Origin: a phage
Sequence record: PZ049713.1
DNA length: 59,621 nt
Direction: 5' to 3' (one strand)
Both the position numbers and the translations under genes were made by a program. This document shows, piece after piece, positions 40,807 to 47,046 of the stretch. The stretch's first letter is position 1, and every line of letters begins with the position of its first letter. Under the pieces are notes generated by a model. The model had not been told where the DNA came from, did no database searches, and saw nothing but the letters and a program-made list of their open reading frames with translations.

Positions 40807-41934
40807 TCAAGCACATAACATTTCCGGCACAACTTCGTTAACTGCTACTCGCCCATATTCCTTGTGGTAGGTAATACCTATTGCGCGGCGGTTAGAGGCA
40901 TAGCCGAGTCTGGCTGCATATGATCCGGTCGCAGTCAGCGTCGGATGCCTGCGAACTATCATTCCGTTATGCGTAGCGACCTCTTCCTTGTGGTAGTGGC
41001 CGGTGTGCGCCTCTCTGTGCTTTGTGCAGCCCCAAATCTCGGGGAAGTTCGCCGCGAAGATGCCCGGCAGGTCCGAATTGCGCGCCTTGTGGCCGTGATG
41101 AAAGCCGAGCATCGTCTTGCCGTGCTGGTAGACGTAATACGGCGTCTCGCTCATGTTCACTTTCAATCTCGGCTCGTTTTCATATAGAGCCTCGAACATA
41201 TGGCGCAACCACAGCGATCCGGCCAAGTCATGGTTGCCCTCTGCAATTACCAGATGGACTTCCTCGTGCTTTGCCAGCGCCATATCAATAATGCTGCGTA
41301 GAACTTTGATACTAACCCGCACCAACTCTGCATATATGCCAGAGACGTTGAGCGGGTGCCGATTGGTTGGCGTTACTGGCTCCAGTCCGTCAAACGTCAG
41401 GAAGTCGCCTAGCTGGTTGATGACGCAATATCTCGCCTTGGCCGATGCGTTGATCATTGCGGCAAAGCAGCCGACAAGCACGCGCTCGGCTTCTTCGAGG
41501 TTCCAGTCGGCGCCACCCTGGATGGCAGTCGCGTATTCCCCGATGTGACAGTCCGTCAGGGTGTACAGGTTGCACAGCGCGTCGTCGGTTTGGGCAGGCC
41601 CGCCCATTGGCGCCAAGCGGTCTATCTGTTCGCCCATTGCTGCGGCTGCGGCGTGCATTAGCTCTAGCTGCCGTTCGTGGTCGATGCTGGACTTGACCCA
41701 CTGCAGCTTCTGCTCGCCGTCCTTGCCGTACAGTGTCGACGTGCCTTTCAGGTGGAAGCCGTCCGGCACGCTCTTGGTCATGTCGTGCTCCGGGCTCCAC
41801 CCCTGACGAGCCAAGCGCGCCTTATGGGTGTAGACGTTGCGCTCGTGCAGCCCAAGGATCTGCGCAGCCTCTGCCACAGTGCGGCCAGTCAGCGCGGCCT
41901 TGATTTCGTCGTCTGTCGCTTTGCGTGCGGCCAT
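40807..41934 (-). CDS. HTH-containing calcineurin-like metallophosphoesterase
   Basis: N-terminal TVAEAAQILGLHERNVYTHKARLARQG. Phosphoesterase motifs LVIAEGNHD, GFHHGH, HTGHYH. Confidence 0.7.
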   Translation of the reverse strand: MAARKATDDEIKAALTGRTVAEAAQILGLHERNVYTHKARLARQGWSPEHDMTKSVPDGFHLKGTSTLYGKDGEQKLQWVKSSIDHERQLELMHAAAAAMGEQIDRLAPMGGPAQTDDALCNLYTLTDCHIGEYATAIQGGADWNLEEAERVLVGCFAAMINASAKARYCVINQLGDFLTFDGLEPVTPTNRHPLNVSGIYAELVRVSIKVLRSIIDMALAKHEEVHLVIAEGNHDLAGSLWLRHMFEALYENEPRLKVNMSETPYYVYQHGKTMLGFHHGHKARNSDLPGIFAANFPEIWGCTKHREAHTGHYHKEEVATHNGMIVRRHPTLTATGSYAARLGYASNRRAIGITYHKEYGRVAVNEVVPEMLCA

Positions 41935-42299
41935 TAGGCTGCCTCCCCCGAGGTGTACTGCATGATGCGAACGCGTACCGCGCCGCCCTTCACGGTTTCG
42001 TCGCTCACGCTGAGCTGAGTCACGAACCGGTTGTCATCGATGCCCAGCGCGTCTGCCAGGCCGTCTCTGCCCGCCTTGAACGCGGCGAGCATGTTGTCGT
42101 CGTCCCGCTTGCGCCGATCGGGCGGCAGGAACTCGATTGCGAGCAGTGCGCGGCCTTCCGGCATTACCAGCCCGGCCGCCTTGCAGAGCAGGTGGCAGTC
42201 GGCTCGGTACTTCTTGGCGATCGGCGCCTTTGCTCGCCAGTGCTTGCGCGAGTTCGGGCTGAGTTCCTTCGGCGGCCAGGGCAGCAGGACTTCGGTCAT
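41934..42299 (-). CDS. rusA: RusA Holliday junction resolvase
   Basis: ...PPKELSPNSRKHWRAKA...DDDNMLAAFKAGRDGLADALGIDD... matches RusA family motifs. Confidence 0.85.
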   Translation of the reverse strand: MTEVLLPWPPKELSPNSRKHWRAKAPIAKKYRADCHLLCKAAGLVMPEGRALLAIEFLPPDRRKRDDDNMLAAFKAGRDGLADALGIDDNRFVTQLSVSDETVKGGAVRVRIMQYTSGEAA

Positions 42300-42523
42300 C
42301 TACTCCCCCTCGCCTTCGCTTCCAGCGCAGCGCGCACCATCTTGCGCAGCAGCGGGCTCATCCTCGACAGTTCGGCCGATACCCACTGGCGCCACTTCGG
42401 CAGACCCATTGGCTTGCAGCGCTCCCGCATCTTGTCCGCGATTGCGAGAGCAAGTGCTTCCGCATTGGCCTTTGCAGTCAGGCCTTCCGCTGTTAATCCA
42501 CGCCTCGCCGCAGAGCACTTCAT
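42296..42523 (-). CDS. Hypothetical protein (75 aa)
   Basis: ORF with a stop/start overlap to rusA. Confidence 0.55.
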   Translation of the reverse strand: MKCSAARRGLTAEGLTAKANAEALALAIADKMRERCKPMGLPKWRQWVSAELSRMSPLLRKMVRAALEAKARGSR

Positions 42524-42559
42524 CGCCTAGCCTCGCCTGTACGTCGATTCGAGAGAGCT

Positions 42560-42889
42560 TCATACGATGTACGCCTTCTCTTCTGGAGTGCGGCAGTCGA
42601 TGGTGTTCTGCTGGCCGAACTCTGGCGGCAGGCGGTCCTCGGCCAACTTCGCGTAGCCTTGGATGTCGTGCCAGTTGTCGGCGTAGTTCGGGTCGCCTGA
42701 GAGGATGCGCCCCACCTTGTCTGCGATTACCTCGAGCGATTGCTTCTGCACGTCAGTCAGGCGATCCCAGCCGGCTTCGGCGCACATGGTGCGTTTCAGG
42801 TTCTGGCAGATCCGGGCGTGGTCGGTGAAGTCGCCGTAACGGCTGCCGCGCTCTGCCAGGGTTTGTGCGAGTTTGTTTGCGTCAGTCAT
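42560..42889 (-). CDS. Conserved Nin-region phage protein (109 aa; DUF6378-like)
   Basis: ATG at 42889 has an aggaag RBS. ...ERGSRYGDFTDHARICQNLKRTM... motif. The longer ORF to 43054 is Pro/Arg-rich and looks like a non-coding extension. Confidence 0.6.
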   Translation of the reverse strand: MTDANKLAQTLAERGSRYGDFTDHARICQNLKRTMCAEAGWDRLTDVQKQSLEVIADKVGRILSGDPNYADNWHDIQGYAKLAEDRLPPEFGQQNTIDCRTPEEKAYIV

Positions 42890-43047
42890 TGCGGCTTCCT
42901 GTCTTGTCTGTTGTTTGCGATCAGGGGGAGCTGGCCGGGCTTTAGCGGCCATGGGTGTTCCTTGCGGCAGTCGTGGCACCAGACGATCTGGCGGCTGCTG
43001 AATGCCGTGGTGTCGTGGTTGGCGTTGGTGGGGCATGGGACTTTCAA
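42886..43047 (-). CDS. Possible small Zn-ribbon protein (53 aa, TTG start)
   Basis: Coupling overlaps at both ends (TTGA with the upstream stop, ATGA with the downstream start). CPTNANH...CHDC. Confidence 0.4.
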   Translation of the reverse strand: MKVPCPTNANHDTTAFSSRQIVWCHDCRKEHPWPLKPGQLPLIANNRQDRKPQ

Positions 43048-43349
43048 GCTGCACCCCGCACAGTCAGCACGCCGGCCTGAATCAGCGCGATATGCGTTTC
43101 GGCGATTGCGCGCGGCATGTCCTGCCAGTCCACCTCGCCCCGGCCACGGCCATCGATTGCGTCGTGGCACGAGCTGCAGGCGAACACAGCAACGGTGTCC
43201 AGCCCTTTCATACCGACCCCGCGCTGGCCACATGGCAGGTGTGCCAGAACGGTGGTCTCGGGGTTGAAGTTGCAGACGCCCGGAATGCGGACGGTACAGT
43301 CCTGGCCGCGGGCGCTGTCGCGGAGCTTCTTGGAGACGATGCGGGTCAT
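43044..43349 (-). CDS. DUF1364 (YbcO-like) putative nuclease
   Basis: KKLRDSARGQDCTVRIPGVCNFNPETTVLAHL is typical of DUF1364 lambdoid Nin-region proteins. Confidence 0.75.
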   Translation of the reverse strand: MTRIVSKKLRDSARGQDCTVRIPGVCNFNPETTVLAHLPCGQRGVGMKGLDTVAVFACSSCHDAIDGRGRGEVDWQDMPRAIAETHIALIQAGVLTVRGAA

Positions 43350-43786
43350 GCTGCCCTCCGCTCGCCATAGATGGCGTACATCAGGTCTTCCGGGTGCGGC
43401 AGCAGCAGGCCCAGCTGCTCGGCGCAGTAGGCGTCAAGCAGCTCCAGGTAAGTGGTCATCTGCTGGATCGTGAAGGCTCGAGTCTTGGCTCGGCCTACCC
43501 GGTACCGGGCGCCGTCCGGCAGCTCTACCGGGTGCACCTCGGACGGCCATAGCTTGCTGACCAGGATCTCGTGCCATTCCTCAGCGCTGGCGATCTGCCC
43601 GAACGACTCGCGAAGGTGCTGCTGGATCAGGCCGTTCCACTGCCAGAGCAGACGGTTTTGGGCGTCGGAGCGCTTGCTGCGAATCTCGGTGATTGCGACC
43701 TTGCGAGGCTTGGAGAGGTCCAAGCCCTGCAGGAAGCTGATCAGGCGCTGGCGGTCCATGTCGGAGCGGAGCATGAGGTCAGCCAT
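43346..43786 (-). CDS. ninB: NinB/Orf-family recombination mediator
   Basis: RSKRSDAQNRLLWQWNGLI aligns with lambda NinB RNRSLDQNRKLWACLGDV. Confidence 0.75.
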   Translation of the reverse strand: MADLMLRSDMDRQRLISFLQGLDLSKPRKVAITEIRSKRSDAQNRLLWQWNGLIQQHLRESFGQIASAEEWHEILVSKLWPSEVHPVELPDGARYRVGRAKTRAFTIQQMTTYLELLDAYCAEQLGLLLPHPEDLMYAIYGERRAA

Positions 43787-44480
43787 TTACGCGGCCTCCT
43801 TCAAAGCTGGCAGCGAGCTCAACGAATGCTGCGTAAGCCACTGCTGCCACTTGCCCGTTTCCAGAGGAGCGGTATCGGTCCACCCTTCCGGCCATCCCAT
43901 CAGCCACTCGTGGATTTCCGGGCTCGGACGCCCAAACACTCGCCGGAACTCGCGCGCGGCCGGCCACTTCTGCATTGAATCGGCGCAGTAGTTCGCCTTG
44001 GTCGTCGGCGTGTGCAAGTAGCCAGTAGCGCTGCCGAACGTGGTCAGCACCCAGGTCTGCCGCGGAGAGGGGAAGCATTCGGACTTGGTAACCCATGCGA
44101 ACGAGGTCGCGTCCGGCTTCTTCAATTGCTCGCTCGGCGACGTTCTCGGCGAAGACAAGCCTGGGAGCGACATCTGCCACGATCCGGCGCATCTCCGGCC
44201 AAAGGTTTTCAGCGTTGTTGCGTCCAGCAGCGGCAGTGCTGAAGGCCTGGCAGGGAAAGCCTCCAGATACGACGTCAACAATTCCGCGCCACGGTAGGCC
44301 GTCAAACGTTCGAACGTCATCCCAGATGGGGAACGGCGGGAGGACTCCATCGTTTTGTCGCTGGACCAGTACCCGCTGACAGTGCTCGTCGTGCTCGACG
44401 GCGCAGACAGGAGTGATGCCGAGCAGGTGGCTTGCGAGCAGGCCGCCACCAACGCCCGCGAATAGAGAAAGCTCATACAC
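43779..44480 (-). CDS. Short C5 DNA cytosine methyltransferase-like protein (233 aa)
   Basis: Motif I LFAGVGG, motif IV GGFPCQAFS, motif VI ENV, QRYW region. No recognisable TRD or motifs IX-X. Confidence 0.75.
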   Translation of the reverse strand: MYELSLFAGVGGGLLASHLLGITPVCAVEHDEHCQRVLVQRQNDGVLPPFPIWDDVRTFDGLPWRGIVDVVSGGFPCQAFSTAAAGRNNAENLWPEMRRIVADVAPRLVFAENVAERAIEEAGRDLVRMGYQVRMLPLSAADLGADHVRQRYWLLAHADDQGELLRRFNAEVAGRARVPASVWASEPGNPRVADGMAGRVDRYRSSGNGQVAAVAYAAFVELAASFEGGRVNG

Positions 44481-44736
44481 GGCGCGCCTCCCGCTTGTCG
44501 TGGTCGTCCTGGCATTCCTTGCAGCGCACGGCGTTCTTGACTGCGTGTAGCCGGCGCGGGTCGATGTCCTCGCCGCAATCCAGGCAGTCCGGCCGGCTTT
44601 CGCCAGTCATGCGCGACAGCACCATCGCCACGCCACCGATACGATCCGCTTCCTCTAGGCCAGAGGCGCGGTCTGTTACGTCGGGAGCCGTGCGGGCCTG
44701 CTCGAAGGCTTCGGCCATTTCCATGTAGTCGGTCAT
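44473..44736 (-). CDS. TraR/DksA-family zinc finger protein
   Basis: CLDCGEDIDPRRLHAVKNAVRCKEC four-Cys finger. Confidence 0.8.
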   Translation of the reverse strand: MTDYMEMAEAFEQARTAPDVTDRASGLEEADRIGGVAMVLSRMTGESRPDCLDCGEDIDPRRLHAVKNAVRCKECQDDHDKREARRV

Positions 44737-44891
44737 TTCCGTGCTCCTACGCCGCGCTGGGTGCTTCCGTCAGCACAGACGACGCGATGGTCATTGCCGC
44801 GTGATAGGCCTATGCCGGTCGCGGTGGTTTTTCGTATCTGGTAGCCCTGGCGCTGCAGGAGCTGGATGGCGTGCTGCTGGATAGGGGTCAT
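44733..44891 (-). CDS. Hypothetical small protein (52 aa)
   Basis: ATGA overlaps at both ends (with the dnaB stop and the traR-like start). Confidence 0.5.
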   Translation of the reverse strand: MTPIQQHAIQLLQRQGYQIRKTTATGIGLSRGNDHRVVCADGSTQRGVGARK

Positions 44892-46258
44892 GCGAAATCC
44901 CCCGATGCACTGCGACTGCGGAACCGGCCCATCTCAACTTCTTCCTGGCTGATCTCGCGCGCACCCGCGAAGCTCACGAACCGCGCGAACTGGCCTTGCT
45001 GCTGAAGGAGGCACGAGCCAACTTGCGCATGACGGCACTTTGTCATCAGGATTTCGGTGACGCCGTTCTGGCCTTCCTCGGTGTCCATGTCCCGGTGAAC
45101 CATGAGGATGCAGTGGGCGTCTGCCTCGATTTCGCCAGAGTCGCGCAGGTCAGCCGAGACGGGCTTTTTGCCTACGCGTTTGGTCGAATCACGGTTGAGC
45201 TGGGAAAGCAGGATTACGGGAATCCCAAGCTCTTTGGAGAGGTTCAACATCGCTTTGCTGATCTTGCCGACCTCTTCCGAGCGACTGCGCCCCTTCGCGT
45301 CAGCCGGGATCAGGCCGAGGTAATCGACCATCACGATGTCAAGGCCATGGTTGCGCTGAACCTGACGGGCTATCGACCGAATGCGCGCCGGGGTCATTCC
45401 AGGGCGGTCGCAGACGTAAAGTGGCTTGTCGACACACTTGGCTACTGCGGCGGTCATGCCCTGCCAATCGCCGTCCTGCATGTCTACGCCAGAGTCGAGC
45501 CGGCCGATATCAACCGACCCGAGAGATGCAATGACGCGCTGGCCAAGCTCTTCCTCTGGCATTTCCAGACTGAAGACCAGGCCAACACCCGCGCCGATCA
45601 TTGCGATGTTCTGAACGATCTGCAGGCCAAGCGTCGTCTTGCCGCTGCCAGGCAGGCCGGCAATCACGGTGACAGTACGGGGACGTAGGTGTCGGGTCAG
45701 CTTGTCGAGGTCAGGCAAGCCGGTGGAAAGCCCCACGACGCGCTTACCGTTGTGCTTCTCGTCGATCGTGTCGACGTTCTTGCGCACGATTTCGTCGATT
45801 CGCTTGTAGCCTGGCTCTCCGTCTTCCAAGTCGCGCAGGTCGGCCATCGCCTGCTGTGCGCTCGCGATAATGTCTGCAAGCGGCTTTTCCTCGGTCGCCA
45901 TCTCTGTCACGGCATTGGCGGCGTCCACCAGTCGGCGCAGAACGGCACGCTCGCGCACGGCTTTGGCATACGCTTCCCAGTTCGCCGTGCTGTAGGTGGC
46001 CTTTGCGATCTCTCCGGCATAGGCGATAGTCGAGTCGCCAGAAGGCAGCTCAGGGCGGAAGATCCCGACCGTCACAGGGTCGATAGGCTCGCCAGCGGCG
46101 TGGCAGTCGAGAATGGCCTGATACAGCGCGGCGTTTTCGATGTCGTAGAAGTCAGCCGCCACGACCTTGCCGCTGATCGCGTCAAACAGGCTCGGGTCGA
46201 GCATCATCGCGCCAAGCACGCCCCATTCGGCTTCGACGCTGTACAGTTCGCGGCTCAT
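44888..46258 (-). CDS. dnaB: Replicative DNA helicase DnaB
   Basis: 456 aa. Walker A GLPGSGKTT and typical DnaB N- and C-terminal domains. Confidence 0.95.
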   Translation of the reverse strand: MSRELYSVEAEWGVLGAMMLDPSLFDAISGKVVAADFYDIENAALYQAILDCHAAGEPIDPVTVGIFRPELPSGDSTIAYAGEIAKATYSTANWEAYAKAVRERAVLRRLVDAANAVTEMATEEKPLADIIASAQQAMADLRDLEDGEPGYKRIDEIVRKNVDTIDEKHNGKRVVGLSTGLPDLDKLTRHLRPRTVTVIAGLPGSGKTTLGLQIVQNIAMIGAGVGLVFSLEMPEEELGQRVIASLGSVDIGRLDSGVDMQDGDWQGMTAAVAKCVDKPLYVCDRPGMTPARIRSIARQVQRNHGLDIVMVDYLGLIPADAKGRSRSEEVGKISKAMLNLSKELGIPVILLSQLNRDSTKRVGKKPVSADLRDSGEIEADAHCILMVHRDMDTEEGQNGVTEILMTKCRHAQVGSCLLQQQGQFARFVSFAGAREISQEEVEMGRFRSRSASGDFA

Positions 46259-47046
46259 ACCTCACCCCCGCGCGCCGAGTCCCAATCAAAGATCACTGCT
46301 AGGCCTCCGTTTTCGCGCAGCCGGTCAAGCGCGCGATCGCCGATGTATGCAGCCAGCTCAGCGCTTGGCAGGTTCGAAGTCACGATGGTGGGAAACATGT
46401 TCCGGTAGCGGGCGTCGATGATCGTGTGCAGCGCCTGGCGCTCGAACTCGGTTCCGCCCTGGGCGCCGATCTCGTCGATCAGCAGCAGATCAACACTTGC
46501 CAGCTCTTCGAAAATCGCCTGCTCAGTCACCGCAGAGTCGCGCCCAAAACTGGACTTGATTGCGGCGATGATGTCGGCGGCCGGCACATAGAGCGCCGTC
46601 GCGCCGTACTGGCGAACCACGGCCTTGAGCACGGCGCAGCCAAGATGGGTCTTGCCGTTGCCGAAGTTCCCCAGCAGCAGCAAGCAGCGGCCTGCGTCGT
46701 AGTTCTCTTGGAACTGATCGACATAGGCTCGGCACTCATCGAGAGCGGCCTTCTGTCCAGCCAGCGGCGTGCGGTAGTTATCCAGCGAGCACTGACGGAA
46801 ACGTGCGGCGATGCCAGTTGCAAACAGAGCAGCGTTGACCGCCTCCCACTGCTTCGACTCGACGGCAGCGGCACGTGCAGCTTCGTCCGTCCCGTGGATG
46901 GCATCGAACCGGCAGCGCGGGCATCCGGTGACGCGGTGCTTGTCGTCAAATGATTCGATCAAGGTACGCTGGTACTCGCCGTGCAGTTCGCACTGCTCCG
47001 GGCGAGATTTGATCCGCGGCGAGGCGCCGAAGTTAGAAGTTCGCAC
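46255..47046 (-). CDS. DnaC/IstB-like helicase loader ATPase
   Basis: Walker A GNFGNGKTH and Walker B LLLIDEIG. Between the initiator and dnaB. Confidence 0.85.
   Translation of the reverse strand: MRTSNFGASPRIKSRPEQCELHGEYQRTLIESFDDKHRVTGCPRCRFDAIHGTDEAARAAAVESKQWEAVNAALFATGIAARFRQCSLDNYRTPLAGQKAALDECRAYVDQFQENYDAGRCLLLLGNFGNGKTHLGCAVLKAVVRQYGATALYVPAADIIAAIKSSFGRDSAVTEQAIFEELASVDLLLIDEIGAQGGTEFERQALHTIIDARYRNMFPTIVTSNLPSAELAAYIGDRALDRLRENGGLAVIFDWDSARGGEV

Follow-up and report, generated by a model that had tools for sequence, protein, structure and literature searches.

A phage cytosine-5 methyltransferase locus with two nearly coextensive reading frames: a proposed two-subunit enzyme

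The locus and its two reading frames

We analyzed a 59,621-nucleotide (nt) stretch of phage DNA (sequence record PZ049713.1), called the window throughout, at the locus of a DNA (cytosine-5) methyltransferase (C5-methyltransferase) on the minus strand. A first-pass annotation had placed an open reading frame (ORF) at 43779-44480 and had read methyltransferase motifs I, IV and VI and a QRYW region in its translation. This ORF is real, as determined by the ORF list and by a match to the Pfam model PF00145 with an expect value (E) of 1.4e-20. The annotation overlooked a second ORF in the +1 frame of the same strand. We refer to the first ORF as alpha and to the second as beta. The beta start follows that of alpha by 4 nt, the two ORFs have 690 of 702 nt in common, both are conserved, and they share one start-site architecture. 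The features of the locus are as follows.

44487..44492, minus strand: GGGAGG, a Shine-Dalgarno-like element, placed 6 nt ahead of the alpha GTG and 10 nt ahead of the beta ATG; the only such element upstream of both starts
44473..44480, minus strand: start-site cluster GTGTATGA, with the alpha GTG at 44480-44478, the beta ATG at 44476-44474 and the TGA of the upstream traR/dksA-like gene at 44475-44473
43779..44480, minus strand: alpha coding sequence, 233 amino acids (aa), GTG start; catalytic (large-domain) subunit of a C5-methyltransferase, with motifs I-VIII and X
44442..44465, minus strand: alpha motif I, LFAGVGGG, S-adenosylmethionine (AdoMet) binding; F7, G9, G11, G12 and G13 invariant among homologues
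44247..44264, minus strand: alpha motif IV, GGFPCQ (within GGFPCQAFS), with the catalytic cysteine; G73-Q78 invariant
44139..44147, minus strand: alpha motif VI, ENV; E112, N113 and V114 invariant
44013..44036, minus strand: alpha motif VIII, RQRYWLLA; R149, R151, W153, L154, L155 and A156 invariant
43887..44012, minus strand: alpha spacer (residues 157-198) that separates motif VIII from motif X; a poorly conserved, stop-free linker
43848..43862, minus strand: alpha motif X, GNGQV; G207, N208 and Q210 invariant, GN aligned with the GN of DRM in the chimeric profile described below
43787..44476, minus strand: beta coding sequence, 229 aa, ATG start, +1 relative to alpha and wholly inside it; proposed recognition and motif IX subunit
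43862..44062, minus strand: beta conserved core, residues 139-205, RQTWVLTTFG...GYLHTPTTKANY..SMQKWP...FGRPSPEIHEWLMGWPEGWT...PL, which holds most of the invariant beta columns
44000..44023, minus strand: beta block GYLHTPTT (TPT motif); T156, P157 and T158 nearly invariant, repeated as (W/L)PTPxxxD in longer members
43877..43909, minus strand: beta motif IX-like segment EWLMGWPEGWT (family form EWLMGWPxGWT), overlapping the alpha codons for PRVADGMAGRVD, just upstream of motif X
43779..43789, minus strand: end cluster TAAATGGCTGA, with the beta TAA at 43789-43787 abutting the ninB ATG at 43786-43784 and the alpha TGA at 43781-43779, 8 nt into ninB

The ORF list gave the beta frame as 43787..44578, 263 aa from a TTG; counted from the conserved ATG at 44476, it encodes 229 aa. 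An example peptide in the beta frame is VFGRPSPEIHEWLMGWPEGWTDTAPLETGK. The beta ATG overlaps the TGA of the TraR/DksA-like ORF as ATGA. The overlaps of alpha with its traR-like and ninB-like neighbors, which had been pointed out at first pass, were confirmed and measure 8 nt each.

Viral relatives were sampled as 80 contigs encoding alpha homologues, some with only 55-65% alpha identity, together with phages PS-1 and Marin. In nearly all of these loci, the beta ATG followed the alpha start by exactly 4 nt. The family-wide start context, NTGAATGA, reads M-N-E-L-A-L-F-A-G in alpha and M-S-W-L-F-S-Q-A in beta. Among 48 distinct contexts, the beta start was ATG in all 48, and the alpha start was ATG in 30, GTG in 11 and TTG in 6, with one unassigned; the end of a Shine-Dalgarno-like tetramer was mostly 3-5 nt upstream of the alpha start.

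The alpha chain and its family

Canonical C5-methyltransferase models lost their match to alpha at about position 170. Residues 4-162 of alpha aligned with profile positions 4-166 of 324 in PF00145, TIGR00675 was matched at positions 3-172 of 329 only, with a score under its cut-off, and the PADLOC methyltransferase models matched with their first halves only. M.HhaI and M.HaeIII aligned with alpha (E 5e-12 to 1e-11) as far as motif VIII and no further, and motifs I-IV of plant DRM methyltransferases also matched. According to the first-pass annotation, alpha had no room for a target-recognition domain plus motifs IX-X. Motif X, however, is present, and its region (RVDRYRSSGNGQVAAVA, residues 199-215) is conserved across all aligned homologues; all that is missing from the alpha frame is the recognition region and motif IX. 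Alpha resembles the one-chain enzymes M.HhaI and M.HaeIII in its aligned motifs I-VIII, plus X. Between motifs VIII and X, one-chain enzymes carry approximately 100-150 residues of recognition domain and motif IX, whereas alpha has approximately 40 residues, which are unselected at the amino-acid level (see below).

A protein search returned 6707 alpha homologues at E<=0.001, and the best 120 were nearly all 224-240 aa long. Aligned homologues matched alpha end to end at 60-93% identity, and phrog_363 ('DNA methyltransferase') spanned alpha residues 2-223 (E 2e-49). The closest named proteins were from Stutzerimonas and Pseudomonas, and named phages with an alpha gene included Pseudomonas PS-1, Marin and Shamal, Ralstonia Gerry and phiRSP, and Klebsiella BUCT711. 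One of the readings proposed at first pass, a methyltransferase gene that is decayed or truncated at its 3' end, would fit the shortness of alpha relative to enzymes of 300-500 aa and the half coverage of the Pfam model. That explanation is refuted, as alpha has thousands of homologues, and those listed are mostly of its own size and align to the last residues with motif X conserved. The possibility that the window contains sequencing errors or two frameshifts that compensate each other was also rejected, both frames being intact in all relatives.

Selection on both reading frames

The +1 frame was open for approximately 220-230 codons in every complete viral locus (about 75 contigs) and its translation was strongly conserved; the +2 frame was closed. 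Synonymous codons of alpha were shuffled such that the alpha protein and its codon content were kept, and stops and beta identity were counted in the +1 frame. P-values were summed over 22 alpha clusters less than 70% identical, with lineages treated as independent. The +1 frame was free of stops in all 62 distinct loci, compared to a mean of 1.5-7.5 stops per locus in the shuffles, and each third of the overlap was depleted of stops (summed log10 P -19, -18 and -15). Beta identity to the window was 0.39-0.66 for loci with 55-70% alpha identity and 0.34 for the divergent locus L047. The observed beta identity was higher than every shuffle in each locus (shuffle maximum 0.44); the shuffle means indicated that approximately 30% beta identity arises from alpha conservation by itself. 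In the reverse test, in which beta was shuffled, the alpha linker between motifs VIII and X was free of stops compared to 1.1 expected per locus (summed log10 P -13).

The two frames differed in where they were conserved. Alpha led in codons 1-150 and beta at approximately 160-200, and both were high at 141-160. Over the DNA of the spacer between motifs VIII and X, mean pairwise identity was 0.49-0.79 for beta compared to 0.25-0.54 for alpha. The most variable codon position was the alpha third position in alpha codons 2-150, the beta third position (the alpha first) over beta 141-200, and again the alpha third position for motif X. The switch to the beta third position at the gap in alpha indicates that selection acts on the beta reading exactly there. 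Dual constraint was observed at alpha 141-160 and at alpha R199-R202/beta G198-T200. Nucleotide variability was low at all three codon positions in alpha codons 151-160, and the DNA of alpha motif VIII also codes for the conserved beta block GSATGYLH, in which beta G148 and G152 are invariant. Taken together, these data show that selection acts on both reading frames.

Two alternatives bear directly on these results. The +1 frame could be untranslated, with its openness and conservation coming from alpha constraints, codon usage or an RNA-level constraint. The 30% beta identity that follows automatically from alpha would agree with this, as would the N-terminal part of beta, which carries an alpha-type signature only. 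We regard an untranslated frame as extremely unlikely: the shuffles preserve alpha yet give stops where none were seen and lower beta identity in every locus, beta 141-200 varies at the beta third position where alpha is less conserved, and GC content across the loci ranges from 46 to 62%.

Alternatively, a single polypeptide could be made by two programmed frameshifts, from alpha into the +1 frame of beta after motif VIII and back before motif X, which would restore the canonical sequence of motifs I-VIII, recognition region, IX and X. The succession of third-position signatures from alpha to beta to alpha, which is colinear with a canonical enzyme, would agree with this. Double frameshifting nevertheless leaves unexplained why the first two thirds of beta are free of stops (log10 P -19 and -18), why the beta ATG is invariant, and why the alpha linker is free of stops (log10 P -13). 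Both frames are also conserved on the same nucleotides, namely alpha DHVRQRYWLLA with beta LTTFGSATGYL and alpha RVDR with beta GWT, and a shift after GWTD would delete the invariant alpha residues R199 and R202. No slippery run was obvious by eye, no systematic search having been made. We consider this mechanism very unlikely.

Beta and its proposed motif IX

Beta had 656 relatives among database proteins and 7056 at E<=0.001 in a full scan of 1.84 billion cluster representatives (50% clusters). Its C-terminus, ...GYLHTPTTKANYCADSMQKWPAAREFRRVFGRPSPEIHEWLMGWPEGWTDTAPLETGKWQQWLTQH..., matched phrog_26627 (E 2.6e-9) and phrog_35493 (E about 2.3e-8 to 3e-8), both approximately 70 aa and of unknown function, and also phrog_1008 ('DNA methyltransferase'; E about 4.1e-5 to 5e-5). 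No family was matched by beta in Pfam, NCBIfam or PADLOC.

The beta segment PSPEIHEWLMGWPEGWT resembles motif IX of C5-methyltransferases. A chimeric profile was built from 28 family members by joining the beta IX segment to the alpha segment with pre-X and motif X, and was searched against PDB sequences. Six of the 8 matches at E<=10 were C5-methyltransferases, including tobacco DRM (4onj/4onq, E 0.053) and Arabidopsis DRM2 (E about 0.9). The DRM alignment spans both halves of the chimera, with tPenqEwLMgwpigWtd...yrvdrlkatGNGQvPiVAa set against EPDEVEMLLGFPKNHTRGGGISRTDRYKSLGNSFQVDTVAY. A control chimera with the beta part shuffled returned nothing at E<=10 in PDB sequences, and neither did the beta profile by itself.

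AlphaFold2 models of beta were confident only at about residues 150-200, which were helical with a predicted local distance difference test score (pLDDT) of 79-94. A 30-sequence alignment gave a mean pLDDT of 40.6. When an alpha N-part, the beta segment and an alpha C-part were joined into full chimeras and scanned against Pfam, the chimera of mycobacteriophage Che9d scored 152.5 bits compared to 148.4 for its shuffled control and 146.5 for the native protein, with PF00145 positions 286-323 matched at E 0.035. The 28 short IX+X chimeras gave nothing in Pfam scans.

Distribution and variants

A dozen named phages with a complete locus all had an intact beta. The two-frame arrangement was also present in Vibrio, Microcystis and Stenotrophomonas phages and in mycobacteriophage Che9d gp80. 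Salmonella phage S9-5 has an alpha of 244 aa with a +1 ORF of 247 codons. Acinetobacter phage ABMM1 (L086:1497-2411) has an alpha of 304 aa and a beta of 298 aa with several PTP repeats.

The bacterial sample consisted of 80 genome loci (Pseudomonas, Acinetobacter, Ralstonia, Citrobacter, Planctomycetota, Verrucomicrobiota, Patescibacteria, Anaerolineales and others), and the IX-like motif could be located in approximately 70. In these, the motif was +1 relative to the frame of motif X and, in nearly all, relative to that of motifs I/IV. The beta ORF ranged from 113 to 554 codons and was mostly 213 or more. The exceptions were two loci with a single stray regular-expression match in the beta frame and three that look frameshifted. 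The latter (L143, L155 and L157) have motif IV and motif X in different frames, and probably represent this gene pair as frameshifted pseudogenes or with errors of assembly.

Longer beta ORFs (ABMM1; P0331, P0341, P0384; L091-L170) contained extra repeats of the (W/L)PTPxxxD type, and the alpha spacer between motifs VIII and X was long and of low complexity in these versions. This suggests a recognition region built of modules, whose evolution costs the catalytic chain nothing. Separately, three beta relatives, P0146 and P0154 (364-367 aa) and P0268 (355 aa), had an insertion of approximately 140 aa right after the N-terminus. P0268 runs on in frame into a motif X-like C-terminus, VDRLRCIGNGQVPLVAATAW, and could be a natural fusion of beta with motif X or a frameshifted assembly.

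Among the public records checked, either alpha ('DNA cytosine methyltransferase') or beta ('hypothetical protein') was annotated and never both, because gene-calling programs retain just one when two ORFs overlap fully. Alpha alone was annotated in PS-1 and Marin, and beta appeared as a 'hypothetical protein' in Gerry and Vibrio phage 1.236.O. Shamal had a 'hypothetical protein' and nothing else at the matching position (frame not checked), SOVA965 had a truncated beta labeled 'DNA-cytosine methyltransferase', and alpha was 5'-truncated in BUCT711. In RefSeq, beta is represented by 'hypothetical protein' WP_ entries in Pseudomonas aeruginosa.

Genomic context

The two ORFs lie within a replication/nin-like module whose genes are mostly joined by 4- or 8-nt overlaps in a lambdoid-like layout. 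The DnaC-like and RusA-like labels below were read from translations and not assigned by a tool.

41934-47046, minus strand: replication/nin-like module, including alpha/beta
46255-47046, minus strand: DnaC-like
44888-46258, minus strand: DnaB helicase
44473-44736, minus strand: TraR/DksA zinc finger
43346-43786, minus strand: NinB
41934-42299, minus strand: RusA-like

The DnaB region was approximately 77% identical to that of P. aeruginosa temperate phages. No restriction gene was found beside alpha/beta, the neighbors being TraR/DksA-like, NinB, DnaB, DnaC-like and RusA-like. We propose that the alpha/beta enzyme is an orphan in the replication/nin module of a temperate phage of the Pseudomonas/Stutzerimonas type. 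Directly after ninB, with a 4-nt overlap, there is a cysteine-rich ORF of 101 aa (43044-43349, minus strand), CTVRIPGVCNFNPETTVLAHLP…CSSCHDAID.

Comparison with known systems

Only two natural C5-methyltransferases made of two polypeptides, M.AquI and M.EcoHK31I, have been described (PMC3404938). M.AquI (CYCGRG) is split in its variable region into two polypeptides that must associate, and its small subunit carries motifs IX and X (PMC3404938). The phage enzyme would likewise be divided into two polypeptides. It differs from M.AquI in that motif X stays in alpha and the genes overlap completely; no source that we read places the M.AquI genes in overlapping frames.

M.EcoHK31I, from E. coli HK31 (YGGCCR), needs both an alpha and a beta polypeptide, and its beta, which carries motif IX, is read from within the alpha gene in a different frame (PMC2836561). 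Its alpha has motifs I-VIII plus X, together with a predicted recognition domain, and the first 42 residues of its beta are dispensable (PMC2836561; PMC3404938). The phage locus is similar in having a second polypeptide in an alternative frame within the alpha gene and an alpha with motifs I-VIII as well as X, and the dispensable N-terminus of the M.EcoHK31I beta parallels the weakly conserved leader of the phage beta. However, the predicted recognition domain of M.EcoHK31I was assigned to alpha, whereas in the phage alpha an unselected linker of approximately 40 aa joins motif VIII to motif X, and it is beta that holds the conserved module preceding the IX-like segment. The phage ORFs are almost coextensive, and the phage enzyme is an orphan, whereas M.EcoHK31I is part of a restriction-modification pair. 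Compared by description only, the phage family and M.EcoHK31I may belong to the same superfamily or may be convergent. There were no matches among E. coli plasmids. The Salmonella-phage version of the gene matched only 4 of 5426 E. coli genomes, in each case under features annotated 'DNA cytosine methyltransferase' (two also ead/Ea22-like).

Plant DRM/DRM2 (PDB 4onj, 7l4h and others) carry a contiguous IX-X segment, EPDEVEMLLGFPKNHTR...SRTDRYKSLGN, which aligns with the IX-like segment of beta followed by alpha motif X. Unlike the phage pair, these enzymes are eukaryotic, consist of one chain and are circularly permuted, and the similarity is local and borderline. Same-strand embedding in the +1 frame is known from the Rz/Rz1 spanins of phage lambda, in which the product of the embedded gene acts in a complex with that of the outer gene. 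Rz1, unlike beta, has approximately 60 codons, covers only part of Rz and is unrelated to methyltransferases, whereas alpha and beta overlap over approximately 229 codons with starts 4 nt apart.

The arrangement occurs in thousands of phages and prophages. An earlier description of this overlap in phage C5-methyltransferases was not found in the literature searched, the coverage of which was incomplete. A literature search for phage orphan C5-methyltransferases lacking a target-recognition domain led nowhere. The portions of a 2025 restriction-modification review reached by term searches contained no mention of the arrangement.

A probable two-subunit enzyme from one stretch of DNA

We think it likely that a single stretch of DNA, read in two frames, encodes both chains of a two-subunit DNA (cytosine-5) methyltransferase at this locus, with beta supplying the recognition region and motif IX. 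One mRNA with one Shine-Dalgarno element and two start codons 4 nt apart would yield both polypeptides. Alpha would be the AdoMet-binding catalytic large domain, with motifs I-VIII, an unselected linker of approximately 40 aa, and motif X. Beta would consist of a weakly conserved leader of approximately 90 residues and a conserved C-terminal module of approximately 120 residues ending in the IX-like EWLMGWPxGWT. The two would assemble into an active enzyme in which beta takes the place of the part that lies between motifs VIII and X in a one-chain enzyme, and the order in the DNA of alpha (I-VIII), beta (recognition-like, IX) and alpha (X) would be colinear with such an enzyme. Phage DNA could then be methylated by this orphan enzyme against host restriction. 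The data establish the two ORFs, their conservation, selection on both frames and the start-site architecture; we infer the translation of beta, a heterodimer with beta as the specificity determinant and an anti-restriction role.

Two further suggestions of the first-pass annotation can be viewed in this light. Its naturally compact methyltransferase holds for the whole family with respect to size, but an enzyme that does without a recognition domain is unlikely, as the stretch between motifs VIII and X is unselected at the amino-acid level. Its alternative of an enzyme that borrows a subunit in trans comes closest to the evidence, although it had not seen the candidate subunit in the +1 frame of the same DNA and had wrongly counted motif X as missing.

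Alternatively, alpha could be a self-sufficient minimal orphan, perhaps of relaxed specificity, and beta a real overprinted protein of unrelated function, such as an anti-defense factor. Overprinted accessory proteins are common in viruses (PMC8227390), beta matches no Pfam, NCBIfam or PADLOC family and no known structure, and the similarity to motif IX is short and of borderline significance. However, alpha has only an unselected linker from motif VIII to motif X, which leaves it without a recognition element of its own, and the most conserved block of beta is encoded at exactly the position that the recognition region and motif IX take up in a one-chain enzyme. In addition, the IX-like segment of beta joined to alpha motif X matches real C5-methyltransferases colinearly when the shuffled control does not, beta accompanies alpha across phyla in nearly all loci examined, and M.EcoHK31I shows that a split solution works. 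An unrelated function for beta is, in our estimation, unlikely.

Several results weigh against the two-subunit interpretation. The P-values of the shuffles assume independent lineages, which is not fully true. The N-terminal 90 or so residues of beta are without selection at the amino-acid level, and some lineages could use a true start further inside the ORF. In Che9d gp80 (L083:1323-2081) the +1 ORF has no MSW start and is open only from 76 nt past the start of alpha, such that beta may start internally in this actinophage lineage. The assignment of motif IX depends on a borderline E of 0.053 and on visual similarity. Full chimeras gave no gain in Pfam score for the window or for S9-5, and profile comparison of beta with E. 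coli Dcm yielded nothing. The AlphaFold2 model of beta alone was low in confidence (mean pLDDT 62 with 88 sequences, below 60 for the N-terminal 150 residues), and a fold search with the beta model returned no structural match. Lastly, the evidence for the production of beta and for its binding to alpha is indirect.

Significance

We also lean, with less confidence, toward the view that this locus is a member of a large, phylum-spanning and unannotated superfamily of two-frame C5-methyltransferases, in which a whole recognition subunit lies in the +1 frame behind one ribosome-binding site and specificity could evolve through the number of (W/L)PTPxxxD repeats. If so, changes in repeat number would merely lengthen a disordered linker in the alpha frame. 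Thousands of 'hypothetical proteins' would be methyltransferase subunits, and M.EcoHK31I, as a single characterized relative or a convergent case, would no longer be a one-off but the tip of a large class. Few functional same-strand overlaps known from double-stranded DNA phages and bacteria would be longer or more widespread.

There are practical consequences for enzyme characterization and phage engineering. Clones of the natural alpha coding sequence carry beta unnoticed, whereas a codon-optimized alpha would destroy beta and should be inactive. A same-strand overlap of 690 nt, conserved in many bacterial phyla, with selection passing from one frame to the other, offers a model for the evolution of dual coding and for setting a subunit ratio by start-codon choice at one ribosome-binding site. 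If the interpretation is correct, the family would also be a case in which a catalytic core whose recognition subunit can be detached is open to testing.

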